NCBI GenBank assembly: GCA_030167145.1
Contig: CP126532.1
Span: 4,920,001 to 4,952,000 of the forward strand
DNA length: 32,000 nucleotides
Direction of reading: 5' to 3'
From: Ktedonobacterales bacterium
Lineage (GTDB): Bacteria > Chloroflexota > Ktedonobacteria > Ktedonobacterales > JADMIN01
Shown here: positions 20,075 through 24,748 of the stretch, piece after piece
Layout: each line of letters starts with the position of its first letter
How positions within the stretch are numbered: the first letter of the stretch is position 1
Made by a program: the position numbers and the translations under genes
Notes under the pieces: model-generated
Databases searched by the model: none
Told to the model about the DNA's origin: nothing
What the model saw: the letters and a program-made list of their open reading frames with translations, nothing else

Positions 20075-21244
20075 TTATGCCTGGGTACGTTTGCGGCGGG
20101 GGCCGCGCCGGACCGTGGCGAACCACACGTACACCGCGCCGACCCAGCCGACGAAGAGGGCGATGATCGTGGTGGCGACGCCGGTGGCGCTGGTCCACGT
20201 GCCGGTGGGCAGCGCGAAGGCGGCGGGGTTGGTGACGGCGGCATAGACGCCGGAGATGCCCAGGATGGTGAAGCCGTTGGCGGCGAGGAGCCAGAGCGTG
20301 ACCCAGTAGGCGAATGCGAGCGATGCGCGACCCCACCAGAGCGCGGCGAGAAGTAGCGCCGCGCCCCCGCCGAGCAGAATCTCTATCGCGTGGAGTCCGG
20401 CGAGGGGATCGAATGCGGTAGTGTTGGCGAGGATGCCGTAGCTGGCGGCACTGCTGTAGGTGATGCCGGTGCAGTGGCCGATGAGCAGTGGCGTAGCGCT
20501 ACAGTTGAGCGTGGCCCAGGGGAAGAGGAACGTGCCAGCCGCCCATAGCGCGATGGCCAGGGTGAGCAAGCTCTTGGCGGCGGCGCGCAACTGGCCGTGT
20601 GGCTGCGCTTCTGTGGTGGTGGGCGTACCCCGGCGGGCGGTCCGCGAAAGGGCTACATCAGCGCCAATCACGAGTGCGGCGAGTAATGTGAGCACTGCAA
20701 TGAAGCCAAGCAACCAATCTGGTGTAAGGAATCGGGGGGTACTGGTAACGTTCAGCGTACTCGGATTGAGATTAGCGTTGAGCGCGAGTGTAGTGCCCGG
20801 TAGTATTGTGTGTGCGTCAAGGGATGTGCCAGAGATAGCTAAACCTATCGCGAAGGCCACATAGCCGAGGAGGCCGAGCAACGTGATAAGAGATCGCCTT
20901 CTGGACCACACCAGCGGCAGCATGAGCAGGCCGAAAACCGTCAGCGCGCTCCAGCCGAACGTGCCCAGGAATGCCCCATCTATATCGCCTGGCGTGAGCC
21001 GCAGCGTATACACCTGTTGCTGGCTGTCGGTTCCGGTGACGACGACGCTGGGCATCCAGGCGACAACAGGCGCGAGGACGGCGGCGCACGTGGCGAGGAG
21101 CAAGCCCACCGCGCGGAAGGGGAAGCGGTGTTTGCGCTCGGCGACGGGCCAGCGCGGCGCGGATGCTTCTACCTGCGTCGCGGGCGGGCGTCCACCGGAC
21201 GCCCCTACCTGTTCGCCGCTCTCGTTGGCGCTCATATCGCTCAT
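20075..21244 (-). CDS. polytopic membrane protein of unknown function
   Basis: ATG 21244 (MSDMSANESG) is preceded by GAGGGGG with 7-nt spacing. The product has at least 8 hydrophobic segments. No family recognised. Confidence 0.65.
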   Translation of the reverse strand: MSDMSANESGEQVGASGGRPPATQVEASAPRWPVAERKHRFPFRAVGLLLATCAAVLAPVVAWMPSVVVTGTDSQQQVYTLRLTPGDIDGAFLGTFGWSALTVFGLLMLPLVWSRRRSLITLLGLLGYVAFAIGLAISGTSLDAHTILPGTTLALNANLNPSTLNVTSTPRFLTPDWLLGFIAVLTLLAALVIGADVALSRTARRGTPTTTEAQPHGQLRAAAKSLLTLAIALWAAGTFLFPWATLNCSATPLLIGHCTGITYSSAASYGILANTTAFDPLAGLHAIEILLGGGAALLLAALWWGRASLAFAYWVTLWLLAANGFTILGISGVYAAVTNPAAFALPTGTWTSATGVATTIIALFVGWVGAVYVWFATVRRGPRRKRTQA

Positions 21245-21375
21245 GGTGTCACCCCCTCTATCCTCCCGCGCGGATACGTCTCGTTGACGTGCGCCACCAG
21301 TGTACACGAGCGGCGGGCGAAATGGTAGGGCGAGGGTGATGAGGACCCATGTTCTGCGTCCCTCCGCACAGCTTC

Positions 21376-21448
21376 CATACATCCGCACAGCTTCCATACA
21401 TCCGCACCTCATGGAGGTGCGTGCCTATGGAGACGTTGCGGATGTATG
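21376..21448. repeat. left 73-bp four-site palindromic module (12-7-12-11-12-7-12)
   Basis: The four sites are CATACATCCGCA (21376-87), CATACATCCGCA (21395-406), TGCGTGCCTATG (21418-29) and TGCGGATGTATG (21437-48). The first two sit in a 19-bp tandem repeat (CATACATCCGCACAGCTTC, 2.7 copies starting at about 21362). The whole folds as an imperfect long hairpin centred on GCACCTC-ATG-GAGGTGC. Confidence 0.85.
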
Positions 21449-21491
21449 AGGAACCGCGCGATCCGCCGCGCTGTCTGGAGCGCTAAGATGT

Positions 21492-23771
21492 CTAGGATGT
21501 CTTCGCCGCACTTTCCGCGACAGGATTGCCGGGCAGCGACAGATACCATGCCCCAGCCCTTCCAAACCCGCGCTGCTCTTTGACGACGGCGAGTTCTTTT
21601 CGCGCCCGCTCCAGTGTTCCATCGCTGATACCCCATGCAGTCGCCTCCGCCAGGACTTCCTTGGCGCTGCGTGGCCCATCCGCCAGCGTTTCGCGCAAGA
21701 ATGCCCTCGCCTGCCCCCGTTTGCTCTCGTCGTCGTTGCCCGCTTCCATCTGCGCGCGCAGGAGCGTATCGGCGCTGAGCGTGACGGCGCCACGCCACTC
21801 GATATGCGGCGCCTCCTCACCCTCCTGTGCATCCTCGGCAGCATCGGCATCCTCGGCAGCATCGGGCGGGGGCGCGCTCACCACCGCATAGCGCCAGGAG
21901 GGCGGGGGCGCGCCCAGGTTGCTCTTGGTGCTGGCCAGGATGCGCTCGTGTTCCGGGTCGTCGGGCGACTTCGCCACCAGCAGCCCCGACCGCGCCGCGC
22001 CGATGATGCCAATCGAGCCGCCGCCGCGATACAGTGCGTTCGCGCCGCCGCCTTTGGTCAGGTGTCGCACCACCACCACAGCGATGCCCAATGCTTCGGC
22101 CATCTGGTTCAGCGGGGCCAGCGCCGCACGTATATCCTGGTCGCGCCACGAGTTCACCCCGCCATCCAGGTACGCCATCAAGGGGTCAATCACCAGCAGC
22201 TTCGCCCCCACGCGCCGGATCTCGCGTTTCAGCCGCGCGATGTCGGTTGGCAGGGTCCAACTGCGCTCGATAACACGCCCACTCACCGGATCGCGCAGGC
22301 GCAGTGTACGCGGCGCGACAATCCGCGTCACATCCGCGCCCGCCGCCTCCAAACGCGGGCGAATCGTGCTGGCCAGGTCGTCTTCGGCGGAGAGCAGCAC
22401 CACCCCCGCTGGCTCGGTCAACCCGACCGTGCCATCGGGCATCGCGCGCCCCGTCGTCACCCGCGCCGCCAGATCGAGCGCCACCAGCGATTTGCCAAGC
22501 CCAGGGTCGCCATCCATCACGGTCAGCTTGCCCAGCGGGATGCGCCCCGGCCACAGCCAGCGCAGCTCCTCCGCCGCCACCTCCGAGACCAGCGGACTCA
22601 CCACATACACGCCGTCGTCCTCGGCTTCGGCATCGGCGTCCGCGCCGACAGACAAGAATGTCTGTCCTACCTGTATCTGCTCAGTGGGGCGGACATTCCT
22701 GTCTGCCTGCTCTCCATGCGCCAGCCCCAACCACGCGCGCACCTGCGCCACAATGCCCGCACCGACAGACACGAATGTCTGTCCTACCTGTGGGGCGGAC
22801 ATTCCTGTCTGCCCGCCACGCAGCCGCTCGGCCAGCCCATGCGCGCCCAGCACCGGCTCGCCGCGTCGCAGCCGCTCGGCGGTGTGTTCCGCCTTGCCAC
22901 CGCGCGCGCGCCACTCCTCATCGCCCGCCACCCGCGCCACCACCCGCACGAACTGATCGGTCTCTGGCACCGACCAGCCGCCCCGCAGCAGCAGGCCGGT
23001 CAGTGCCAGCGCCGCCTCATCGCGGCTGCCCACCCCCGGCCAGTGCCGCGCCAAGAGCGCCGCCGCCGCCACTTTCGCCACCGCCCGCCGCAGCGCCGCG
23101 CCGTCTATCGTCGCCGGGTCGCCGTCCTGCTCCCAGCGCACCCGATCGCCGCTGGGATGCAGCGAGGGCGGGGCCAGCGTCTGGCAGCCGGTGGAGCGCA
23201 GCTCGACGAGCATCGTCTGGTGGCCCACCTCTCCCCCCAGCCCCCTCCCCGGCGCAGGGAGGGGGCGTGCTAGCTCCCCTTCCCTGGTCGGGCCGCGCGG
23301 TGCTAGCTCCCCTTCCCTGGTCGGGAGGGGGTTGGGGGGTAGGTGCTCCCCCATCCAGGCGAACTTGCATGTCAGCGGGGGCAGCCCCTCCTCCGCCGCC
23401 TCGACCTCGCGTTCGACCACATACCAATAGTGGCTGCGTGGCGCGCCCTTGCGCCCCGAAATGCGCGCGGTCGGCGGCAGCAGCGCGGCAGCGGCGTCGG
23501 CGGCCTCCGGCGCATCACAATCCACCTCCACCAACCCGCCGCTTGGCCCGCCCAAGAGCAGCCCCAGGTTGTGCGCCTTCGCGCCCCCCGCGAACCAGCG
23601 CGGTAGCTCTTCGGGAATGAAGCGGGTCTGCGTCCACTTGGCCTGCGCCGGAATCTTCGTGCCGGGCCGCAGCGGAATCACCCGCCAGCCCCACGCCGCA
23701 TACGCCAGCGCCGCCGCCAGCGGGTCGGTCGCGCGCAGCGGCTGCATCCCTGCTGTGTCCTTCGTCTCCAT
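21492..23771 (-). CDS. bifunctional primase-polymerase (PrimPol) / RepA-like AAA_25 helicase / C-terminal wHTH replication protein
   Basis: The N-terminus has PrimPol motifs: AAWGWRVIPLRPGTKIP, the DxD motif LVEVDCD, SGRKGAPRSHYWY and ELRSTGCQTLAPPSLHPSG. The centre has Walker A (DGDPGLGKS), Walker B (LLVIDPL) and VVVVRHLTKGG. The C-terminus is HTH-like (AKEVLAEATAWGISDGTLERARKEL). The ORF is continuous and carries several repeat-derived inserts. Confidence 0.85.
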   Translation of the reverse strand: METKDTAGMQPLRATDPLAAALAYAAWGWRVIPLRPGTKIPAQAKWTQTRFIPEELPRWFAGGAKAHNLGLLLGGPSGGLVEVDCDAPEAADAAAALLPPTARISGRKGAPRSHYWYVVEREVEAAEEGLPPLTCKFAWMGEHLPPNPLPTREGELAPRGPTREGELARPLPAPGRGLGGEVGHQTMLVELRSTGCQTLAPPSLHPSGDRVRWEQDGDPATIDGAALRRAVAKVAAAALLARHWPGVGSRDEAALALTGLLLRGGWSVPETDQFVRVVARVAGDEEWRARGGKAEHTAERLRRGEPVLGAHGLAERLRGGQTGMSAPQVGQTFVSVGAGIVAQVRAWLGLAHGEQADRNVRPTEQIQVGQTFLSVGADADAEAEDDGVYVVSPLVSEVAAEELRWLWPGRIPLGKLTVMDGDPGLGKSLVALDLAARVTTGRAMPDGTVGLTEPAGVVLLSAEDDLASTIRPRLEAAGADVTRIVAPRTLRLRDPVSGRVIERSWTLPTDIARLKREIRRVGAKLLVIDPLMAYLDGGVNSWRDQDIRAALAPLNQMAEALGIAVVVVRHLTKGGGANALYRGGGSIGIIGAARSGLLVAKSPDDPEHERILASTKSNLGAPPPSWRYAVVSAPPPDAAEDADAAEDAQEGEEAPHIEWRGAVTLSADTLLRAQMEAGNDDESKRGQARAFLRETLADGPRSAKEVLAEATAWGISDGTLERARKELAVVKEQRGFGRAGAWYLSLPGNPVAESAAKTS
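21829..21864. repeat. perfect 18-bp tandem duplication inside the replicase gene
   Basis: gcatcctcggcagcatcg occurs twice (21829-46, 21847-64). It is in-frame and encodes DAAEDADAAEDA. Confidence 0.9.
22647..22707. repeat. composite hairpin repeat, copy 1 (hairpin A + hairpin B)
   Basis: Hairpin A is GACAGACA-AGAA-TGTCTGTC (22647-66), followed by CTACCTGT and then an 11-nt insert. Hairpin B is GGCGGACA-TTCC-TGTCTGCC (22688-707). It lies inside the replicase CDS. Confidence 0.85.
22764..22814. repeat. composite hairpin repeat, copy 2
   Basis: Hairpin A is GACAGACA-CGAA-TGTCTGTC (22764-83), followed by CTACCTGT and then hairpin B, GGGGCGGACATTCCTGTCTGCCC (22792-814). It is near-identical to copy 1 but lacks the 11-nt insert. 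Confidence 0.85.
23241..23343. repeat. cluster of G/C-rich palindromic repeats inside the PrimPol domain
   Basis: There is a 9-bp stem, CCCCCTCCC (23241-49) with GGGAGGGGG (23257-65). A 26-bp direct repeat gtgctagctccccttccctggtcggg occurs at 23267-92 and 23300-25, with a 33-nt period. The terminal unit is CTCCCCTTCCCTGGTCGGGAGGGGGTTGGGGGGTAGG (23307-43). Confidence 0.85.
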
Positions 23772-23825
23772 GGCTCATTCCTTCCCCTCACCCAGTCCAC
23801 CCAGTCCACCCATTTCGCGCCCAGT

Positions 23826-23848
23826 GGGGCGGACATTCTTGTCTGCCC
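23826..23848. repeat. hairpin B, copy 3 (intergenic)
   Basis: GGGGCGGACATTCTTGTCTGCCC lies between the small ORF stop (23884) and the replicase start (23771). It is flanked by a 9-nt tandem CCAGTCCAC x2 (23792-23809). Confidence 0.8.
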
Positions 23849-23883
23849 GCCCCCTGCTCGCCTCATGTACTCCGGCAGCCTCC

Positions 23884-24363
23884 CTACGGTGCGCGCAGCC
23901 GTGGACCTTGCATCGAGACGAACAGCTTTTGATCCTTGTCGGAAATCTTGACCATGTCCAAGATGAAGGTGAAATCGCTGAAGTCCGACCACTCATCCCC
24001 TGCTTCGAGCGCCTCAAGCTCCACGCTTGGCTCGGCCCACCCCCGCGGGCCAGCCTTCGGGGGCGTGTAACGGTGCAGCATGAGATTCACCACAGATATC
24101 CTCTTCGTGCTCGGCCCCTGGCGCGAGAGCAGTAGCGCACGCAACGTCACCGCATATGCCATCTCCGCCGCCTCGCGTGCGATCTGCTCCATCCACGGCA
24201 ACACCTCGCGCTTCGCCAGCACCGGCGCCACCCGCGAGTATTCGCTCTTGTACAGATCTCGCCAGGTCGCGCGATGGCGGGGCGGTTTCCCTTTCGCCTG
24301 TGCCCGCCCGCTGCGCTCACGTTGTTGGTTTCGCTCGTCTCGCTCGTCTTGCTCGTTTCGCAT
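23884..24363 (-). CDS. hypothetical 159-aa protein, first gene of the replicase cassette
   Basis: ATG 24363 (MRNEQDERDERNQQRER...) is preceded by AGGAG with 9-nt spacing. It has a charged N-terminus and then a helical region. The track start at 24531 would read through repeat copy Y. No family recognised. Confidence 0.55.
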   Translation of the reverse strand: MRNEQDERDERNQQRERSGRAQAKGKPPRHRATWRDLYKSEYSRVAPVLAKREVLPWMEQIAREAAEMAYAVTLRALLLSRQGPSTKRISVVNLMLHRYTPPKAGPRGWAEPSVELEALEAGDEWSDFSDFTFILDMVKISDKDQKLFVSMQGPRLRAP

Positions 24364-24407: not shown

Positions 24408-24444
24408 CTCCCCTGCCCTCGTAGGGAAGGGGCCGGGGGTTAGG
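24408..24444. repeat. G/C-rich palindromic repeat, dispersed copy
   Basis: CTCCCCTGCCCTCGTAGGGAAGGGGCCGGGGGTTAGG is about 80% identical to 23307-23343. It lies in the predicted 5' leader of the small ORF. Confidence 0.75.
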
Positions 24445-24574
24445 TTCCTCCCGAAAACGACAAAGCGCCGCCCCATCCCCGCAAGAGCCAGGCAGGTAGG
24501 GGCGCATGCCATGCGCCCGCCAGGCCAGCAAGGGATAGAGCGGCGCCTATACTCAGGCTCACCGCGCAAACTTC

Positions 24575-24596
24575 AGCTCACATCAGCATATGAGCT
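24575..24596. promoter_or_regulatory. inverted repeat at the predicted transcription start of the cassette
   Basis: AGCTCA (24575-80) and TGAGCT (24591-96) are separated by a 10-nt spacer, immediately downstream (minus strand) of the predicted -10. Confidence 0.35.
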
Positions 24597-24604
24597 TGCG
24601 AACA

Positions 24605-24633
24605 AGTATAGAACATATTTTCTATTATTTCAA
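24605..24633 (-). promoter_or_regulatory. near-consensus sigma70 promoter in an AT-rich island, driving the small ORF/replicase cassette
   Basis: Minus strand reads TTGAAA (24633-24628), a 17-nt spacer (taatagaaaatatgttc), then TATACT (24610-24605). It is embedded in the most AT-rich ~40 bp of the window. Confidence 0.55.
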
Positions 24634-24675
24634 GTGTGCCCTGGCCATCCGATCAATTTCTGCCCTCGGACACCC

Positions 24676-24748
24676 CATAGGTCCGCAACATCCTCATAGA
24701 CCCGCATGCAGTTGAGATGCGGACCTATGGGGTGGATGCGGACCTATG
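24676..24748. repeat. right 73-bp four-site palindromic module (12-7-12-11-12-7-12)
   Basis: The four sites are CATAGGTCCGCA (24676-87), CATAGACCCGCA (24695-706), TGCGGACCTATG (24718-29) and TGCGGACCTATG (24737-48). The spacing is identical to the left module, and it aligns with the reverse complement of 21361-21455, including the outer TATGGAAG. Confidence 0.85.

Follow-up and report, generated by a model that had tools for sequence, protein, structure and literature searches.

Four-site arrays at the ends of a PrimPol-helicase operon in a Ktedonobacterales chromosome: a candidate origin for the enzyme's own winged helix

The Rep protein of Staphylococcus aureus pathogenicity islands (SaPIs) uses its C-terminal winged helix to bind iterons that directly follow rep and number at least two per side, the two sides facing opposite ways (PMC9371898). 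The 3.1-kb minimal replicon of plasmid pRN1 contains a small open reading frame (ORF), orf56, the gene orf904, which encodes a primase-polymerase (PrimPol) fused to a superfamily 3 (SF3) helicase plus a winged helix, and an essential 100-nt stem-loop 3' of the gene (PMC4234260). RepAM of pMEA300 binds identical hairpin-forming repeats that lie within its own gene, at the 3' end (PMC2440964). Here we describe a 73-bp module of four 12-bp sites, hereafter the left array, adjacent to a PrimPol-helicase (replicase) gene of a Ktedonobacterales bacterium of the Chloroflexota. The window, that is, the whole stretch of DNA analysed, spans 32,000 nucleotides (assembly GCA_030167145.1, contig CP126532.1, positions 4,920,001 to 4,952,000), and the cassette that carries the module resides in a 5.07-Mb chromosome contig of this metagenome-assembled genome (MAG). 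Based on sequence comparison, structural modelling and analogy, we estimate at roughly 60% the probability that the module represents four duplex binding sites for the winged helix of the adjacent enzyme, and acts as its cognate origin or as one of two bound regions.

The left array comprises two direct sites followed by two inverted ones (-> -> <- <-), with start-to-start distances of 19, 23 and 19 bp, and begins 44 nt 3' of the replicase stop codon. The original prediction, made from the sequence alone, had correctly placed the module between this stop (21492) and the start of the next gene (21244). It had also described a 19-bp tandem repeat, which Tandem Repeats Finder recovered at 21363-21407 with 2.4 copies rather than the slightly high 2.7 proposed. 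The palindrome GCACCTC-ATG-GAGGTGC (21404-21420) and the inverted sites TGCGTGCCTATG (21418-21429) and TGCGGATGTATG (21437-21448) were found as described, as was a long imperfect hairpin, whose inverted arms (21376-21410 and 21414-21448) are 35 nt each, 77% complementary and separated by a 3-nt loop. When up to two mismatches are allowed, the window contains 10 copies of the 12-mer CATACATCCGCA where 2.9 would be expected, a count reached by none of 100 shuffles, and seven of these copies fall in two clusters. The window holds two such four-site arrays only, the left one and an upstream (right) one, which share the site pattern CATAnnnCCGCA and bracket a 3.4-kb unit.

We then compared homologous loci using a scanner for four mutually similar 12-mers in the -> -> <- <- layout. 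The comparative set consisted of 80 loci (L numbers below) from a genome collection covering many phyla, for a total of 983 kb scanned. The closest homologues of the replicase are approximately 50% identical and come from Ktedonobacterales, in unrelated housekeeping contexts. The first four Ktedonobacterales homologues inspected all had an array beside them, with a site of its own in each case (GCAAGnnnnCCA, CGAAGnnCGCCA or CAGTTnTGGCCA), and the arrays of another locus type use CGAAGATGCTCA. Across the set, 27 of 33 strict arrays mapped between -80 and +160 nt relative to the end of the helicase match, a zone that represents 1.9% of the 983 kb (binomial P ~4e-41); four of the other six were located in the primase-helicase linker and two after cargo genes. 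In shuffled sequence the scanner recorded 0 to 1 arrays per Mb, and none in the scan of the first four homologues. Furthermore, 48 testable loci had no strict array, and 33 of these carried at least four copies of a 10-mer right 3' of the gene, nearly always in both orientations, compared to usually two copies (range 1-4) in shuffles. The marker spacing across the family is 12-bp sites at 19-20/22-25/19-20, while the site sequence varies from locus to locus within one loose family, roughly C-N-A/T-A-G-N-N-G/C-G/C-C/T-C-A.

The array usually starts a few codons from the W.W.LP motif that closes the winged helix. The frame of the gene remained open through the array in 24 of 28 loci, against 17 of 56 cases in the two alternative frames (Fisher P = 2e-6), indicating that the array is normally part of the coding sequence. 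As the peptide it encodes is not conserved, the constraint appears to be exerted on the DNA. The window is an exception, its replicase stop codon preceding the array. In most relatives, the 3' array comes just before a translationally coupled downstream gene, the coupling being an ATGA or GTGA overlap in many of them. The coupled gene of L053 (7051-7524) encodes a small protein with a TubC_N docking-like domain, and the post-array genes of L017 and L026 begin with a peptide that resembles that of L053 by eye.

Primase type, upstream ORFs and downstream genes vary among the loci, and the only constant partner of the array is an AAA_25 helicase with a C-terminal winged helix. Because this is the only gene always found with the array, the winged helix is the most plausible reader of the sites. 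The iteron-like architecture put forward in the original prediction was supported by these comparisons, as the same four-site geometry recurs at helicase-gene 3' ends across phyla with a locus-specific site sequence and a single constant neighbour. AlphaFold2 modelling gave a mean predicted local distance difference test score of 85.8, with values of 94-98 over the winged-helix domain, and the best fold matches of this domain in the PDB were all winged helix-turn-helix regulators (PadR, ArsR/SmtB, MarR). A PDB profile search with the replicase matched RadA and RSF1010 RepA, and the Prim-Pol domain weakly matched 1rni (E = 0.006). We infer from these comparisons that the winged helix binds the sites and that replication starts at the arrays.

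More distant relatives were found on plasmids. OY725856, a circular 8.5-kb plasmid, encodes a relative 33% identical and shows, just past the stop codon, a pair of direct sites with an AT-rich centre and inverted copies. This gene and its array are also present on the C. coli plasmid pCOS502. In the Streptomyces plasmid relative CP108844, the gene is followed by a plain perfect hairpin and by no four-site array; not all distant relatives share the four-site architecture.

On the minus strand, the 3.4-kb unit reads in the order upstream array, promoter, leader hairpin, 159-aa ORF, replicase gene and downstream array (Table 1). The right array is located about 37 nt upstream of the -35 hexamer of the operon promoter, and an array followed by a LexA-box promoter, as at this end of the cassette, was also found in L012-L014. 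GAAC-N4-GTTC is the Gram-positive-type LexA box. A perfect copy abuts the -10 hexamer at the same place upstream in L003, L004, L012, L013, L014 and L020, against a background of 0.022 per kb, and by its promoter sequence the replicase operon is probably SOS-inducible. The leader hairpin (A-ACGGCGCCACGCT-TCC ... GGGATGGTGGGGCGCCGTTTTTT) is kept in L004 (5907-5969), L006 (5827-5882), L009, L011-L015 and L018; it showed little covariation and belongs to no Rfam family. The 159-aa protein had no detectable family in Pfam or PHROGs and is not conserved among relatives, and a comparison, by eye only, of the small ORFs located upstream in the window, L003 and L006 showed no obvious similarity. The AT-rich stretch next to the right array is a possible unwinding region.

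Table 1. Coordinates of the arrays and of the features of the replication cassette in the 32,000-nt window.
Feature	Position	Strand	Description
Left (downstream) four-site array	21376-21448	none	Layout 12-7-12-11-12-7-12, 73 bp
Left-array site 1	21376-21387	+	CATACATCCGCA
Left-array site 2	21395-21406	+	CATACATCCGCA
Left-array site 3	21418-21429	-	CATAGGCACGCA
Left-array site 4	21437-21448	-	CATACATCCGCA
Degenerate fifth site	21357-21368	+	CGTCCCTCCGCA; 19-bp phase kept, 9/12 matches; part of the tandem repeat
19-bp tandem repeat	21363-21407		Period 19, 2.4 copies, 100% matches (Tandem Repeats Finder); two direct sites and spacer
Central palindrome	21404-21420		GCACCTC-ATG-GAGGTGC; spans the 11-nt centre separating the inner sites
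Replicase gene	21492-23771	-	759 aa; Prim-Pol aa 21-220, AAA_25 (RepA/RecA-type) ATPase aa 400-575, C-terminal winged helix
Winged-helix coding region	21528-21734	-	~aa 680-748; ends in family motif W.(W/Y).LP; proposed to read the 12-bp sites
First operon gene	23884-24363	-	159 aa; no Pfam or PHROGs family
Leader hairpin with T-rich tail	24453-24553	-	Between promoter and genes; terminator- or attenuator-like
AT-rich stretch	24540-24660	none	54% A+T vs genome ~35%; adjoins right array, contains promoter
Sigma-70-type promoter	24605-24633	-	TTGAAA-17-TATACT; spacer holds LexA-box-like AGAAAATATGTTCT at 24610-24623
Upstream (right) four-site array	24676-24748	none	19/23/19 geometry identical to left array
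Right-array site 1	24676	+	CATAGGTCCGCA
Right-array site 2	24695	+	CATAGACCCGCA
Right-array site 3	24718	-	CATAGGTCCGCA
Right-array site 4	24737	-	CATAGGTCCGCA

These features could be assembled into the following mechanism. The array would be the origin of a small, probably SOS-inducible, chromosome-resident replication cassette. With its opposed site pairs, the array would place two helicase rings across the 11-nt centre in a back-to-back or head-to-head arrangement, and there the enzyme would melt the DNA, load itself and prime synthesis. The right array would be read by the same protein, as a second origin or enhancer region comparable to ori and crr of P4, or as an operator.

This last possibility introduces the main rival explanation, in which the arrays are bound by the replicase winged helix and act as operators or copy-control sites (autoregulation of the operon or of the downstream gene, handcuffing), the origin lying elsewhere, for instance in the AT-rich stretch. 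It is compatible with the same binding and does not exclude an origin function. The right array does sit close to the operon promoter, as do the arrays of L012-L014, the 3' array of most relatives directly precedes a coupled gene, and a regulatory role of the binding site was suggested for RepAM too (PMC2440964). Nevertheless, what is conserved family-wide is a location at the gene's 3' end rather than at the promoter; most loci have a single array, and most lack a promoter-proximal one. The two-plus-two opposed layout is also that of self-loading helicase origins, and a purely regulatory role thus seems to us unlikely. Somewhat less likely still is that the hairpin itself is functional, whether in RNA, where a 3' stem-loop would terminate or attenuate transcription or stabilise the mRNA, or in DNA, where a single-stranded or cruciform structure would provide a primosome or priming signal. 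The predicted folds are very stable: -32.2 kcal/mol as single-stranded DNA (z -5.3) and -66.2 kcal/mol as RNA of the gene strand (z -6.6), with none of 200 shuffles as good in either case. In contrast, among 35 distinct arrays the 7-8-nt spacers were 30% complementary between arms versus 25% by chance. Hairpin-partner sites were no more alike than same-arm pairs, all six site pairings being equally alike (1.4-1.8 mismatches per 12), a result that is biased, unlike that for the spacers, by a scanner that demands four alike sites. A selected stem needs no identical halves on one arm and would keep its spacers paired; hence, the pattern fits protein sites. Since four copies of one site are conserved and not the stem, the hairpin or cruciform of the original prediction, although real as a fold, looks like a by-product of inverted site copies. 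Furthermore, a scan around the left array (20800-21900) revealed no terminator-like site, no T-run after the stem and no promoter, and Rfam searches at gathering and permissive thresholds returned just tRNA and sub-threshold hairpin look-alikes. In relatives, the open frame through the array and the coupled next gene indicate that transcription does not stop there.

The original prediction had offered as a second option the ends of a multi-site recombinase or transposase, and more generally the arrays could be ends or recombination sites of a mobile cassette, including integron attC-like exchange. They do bracket the 3.4-kb cassette here, a Type ISP gene in L003/L008 and exactly the helicase-winged helix part in several loci, and a third array of L015 follows four host-like genes. 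Yet we found no integrase, transposase or recombinase within the unit or 10 kb on either side (Pfam and PHROGs on cassette genes and neighbours). Most homologous loci have one array fixed at the gene 3' end, usually in frame, and where relatives carry a tyrosine integrase, it lies about 2 kb away from the array. The replicase also keeps the same chromosomal locus in two syntenic genomes. Scanning metagenome and viral contigs for CATAN3CCGCA-N7-CATAN3CCGCA returned 55 and 9 stretches, respectively, none of which encodes a replicase relative, so that no further helicase-linked copies of the site pattern were found in the contigs scanned; where the array scanner did respond to such a stretch, it had picked up a tandem array or low-complexity DNA. 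These observations make recombination ends very improbable. A search for an empty site through the neighbouring 389-aa gene yielded one 78% relative on a 1.4-kb contig and no close empty-site relative, and as this gene is an orphan, insertion boundaries are not definable. Finally, the genome does carry repetitive extragenic palindromic (REP)-like elements, even in the replicase linker, which could suggest that the arrays are genome-wide dispersed palindromes (REP- or miniature inverted-repeat transposable element-like) or chance repeats unlinked to the replicase. But the window has just two arrays in 32 kb, both flanking the replicase operon, and homologous loci each have their own site sequence beside the helicase gene, with 0 to 1 arrays per Mb in shuffles; these positional statistics exclude a dispersed element or chance, which we practically discount. 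A classical iteron plasmid origin was rejected as well, given that Pfam detected no Rep_3 match and that there are only two or three direct and two inverted copies; DnaA boxes were not searched for.

Several observations weigh against an origin read by the winged helix, in addition to the scanner bias mentioned above. The correlation between site and C-terminal-domain sequences was weak (29 loci, Mantel r = 0.18, P = 0.045), and in a partial Mantel test on the same 29 loci, with ATPase divergence removed, it was not significant. The 11-nt centre of the left array (CCTCATGGAGG) is not AT-rich and its flanks are about 36% A+T, which differs from SaPI origins. Over the 35 arrays, centres averaged 47% A+T and sites 45%, whereas an AT-rich centre is expected of a SaPI-type origin. 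Of the two arrays in the window, just the right one adjoins an AT-rich stretch (54% A+T), which lies to one side of it. Moreover, the cassette is chromosomal, lacks an integrase in the 10 kb around it and has remained stably in place in related genomes, and thus may be inactive or co-opted.

GC skew flips from positive to negative at about 21 kb, beside the left array, although the genes on either side are on the minus strand. The sign of this change is the one expected of converging forks, not of an origin, and the change may simply mirror island composition. Just downstream of the left array lies an orphan 389-aa membrane-protein gene (20075-21244, minus strand). A search of 5.8 billion clustered proteins returned the protein itself and the single relative mentioned above, and this gene may be part of the island and not of the host genome.

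Repeats also occur in and near the replicase gene, at 22640-22846, 23824-23850, 23267-23325 and 24410-24440. REP-like palindromes (GGCAGACA-nnnn-TGTCYGCC) form two units of approximately 110 bp, inserted in frame in the primase-helicase linker, the spot where relatives carry a four-site array. A further copy lies just upstream of the start codon. The Prim-Pol domain includes a 26-nt repeat, present twice at a distance of 33 nt, as well as G/P-rich repeat insertions. None of these insertions closes the ORF.

Linker arrays were observed in L009, L010, L015 and L035, and partial ones in L007, L011 and L018. They are in frame and precede by 15-20 codons the conserved V.WLW.GRIPLG motif with which the helicase domain starts. 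The helicase-winged helix part thus has an array at each end, one in the linker and one 3'. Across phyla, identity in the helicase half is about 50%, and the primase fused to it is of at least five kinds (Prim-Pol, Toprim, PriCT, DnaB_N, zf-CHC2). We therefore considered, as a speculation to which we give a low probability, that in-frame arrays at domain boundaries let helicase, reader and origin move as a unit between primase genes or, alternatively, that the cassettes are resident, SOS-controlled accessory origins. The portable unit would consist of an array, the RepA-type helicase, the winged helix and an array, with junctions at the primase-helicase linker and the 3' tail, and recombination or replication restart at the arrays would move it and may capture cargo genes. 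If true, this would explain how a helicase half that is ~50% identical came to be fused to so many primases, and the Ktedonobacterales cassettes would have become resident, LexA-controlled accessory chromosomal origins.

Other loci displayed additional arrangements. In L003/L008 (8492-12337), the Type ISP restriction-modification gene bracketed by two arrays is followed by a large terminase gene, and in L011 (10100-12972) a terminase lies 1.4 kb after the array. The third array of L015 (14161-14235) comes after four host-like genes that include HD and enolase-like ones. L007 and L015 derive from syntenic Chloroflexota MAGs in which flanking proteins are 82-93% identical and the replicase occupies the same locus, between ddl and the HD gene. 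The replicase is far more diverged, and the site sequence differs, having switched in all arrays together. This replicase is either a fast-evolving resident cassette or one replaced in place.

A search of the literature, whose searchable coverage is incomplete, returned no described origin for the AAA_25/RepA-type helicase-winged helix family. The design proposed here is known from phage satellites and small plasmids and apparently has not been described for AAA_25 helicases, a replicase family that we found in Chloroflexota, Actinomycetota, Acidobacteriota, Nitrospirota and other phyla. If the arrays are origins, four 12-bp sites at the end of the helicase gene would provide a sequence-readable origin marker for a very widespread family of mobile-element replicases, and their rigid two-plus-two geometry leads to a testable prediction on the placement of two helicase rings. 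In phage lambda, the origin lies in frame inside the gene of the initiator O. An origin in frame in the initiator gene, as for lambda O and pMEA300 RepAM, would here be the rule across phyla. The window itself presents a complete, compact 3.4-kb replication cassette, probably SOS-inducible, in a chromosome and without an integrase, which raises the question of its firing.

Among known systems, the closest likeness is to the Rep (PriRep)-ori modules of SaPIs and other phage-inducible chromosomal islands. Both combine a primase-helicase with a C-terminal winged helix, short repeats immediately 3' of the gene, at least two opposed sites on each side and an element-specific site sequence. They differ in that the helicase of the window is of the RecA/RepA-type AAA_25 family, whereas Rep2 has been placed in superfamily 6 (PMC9371898). 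No chain named as SaPI Rep was among the PDB profile matches listed for the replicase, the two being set apart by domain matches and not by direct comparison. Here, four 12-bp sites follow a rigid two-turn phasing of 19-20 bp, whereas SaPI sites are 5-6 bp; the left array has an 11-nt centre that is not AT-rich; and in most relatives the array is inside the coding sequence, with extra arrays in the linker or upstream of the promoter.

The pRN1 replicon shares with the cassette a small first ORF, a PrimPol-helicase-winged helix gene, a long imperfect stem-loop downstream, a size of ~3.1-3.4 kb and a weak sequence relationship of the Prim-Pol domain (PDB 1rni, E value above). It differs by its SF3 helicase, in place of the AAA_25 RecA/RepA type, and is archaeal and episomal. 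In pRN plasmids the stem is kept as a structure with little sequence conservation, whereas here the four site copies are kept and the stem is not selected. RepAM, from actinomycete integrative elements, shares the position of its repeats in the 3' coding sequence with most relatives of the window gene, although in the window the array follows the stop codon. RepAM belongs to the DUF3631 family, has 8-bp repeats and a proposed pC194-like nick site. Because this family does not match the window protein, RepAM is an analogue and not a relative.

The alpha protein of P4 is also a primase-helicase whose C-terminal winged helix binds repeats in two regions of the replicon (summarised in part in PMC4234260). 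The window resembles P4 by its two arrays, one per operon end, but P4 uses a Toprim primase and an SF3 helicase, and its octamer repeats differ in number and arrangement. In site II of simian virus 40 (SV40), bound by large T antigen, and in the E1 sites of papillomaviruses, four sites in the -> -> <- <- layout nucleate two opposed helicase hexamers through the origin-binding domain of the helicase. The layout and its reading by the helicase's own domain are shared with the arrays described here, whereas those eukaryotic viral enzymes are SF3 helicases with closely packed sites of 5-6 bp and an origin-binding domain that is not a winged helix. By analogy, the left array would work like the origins of self-loading primase-helicases, with no sign of membership by descent in the SaPI, pRN1, P4 or RepAM families.

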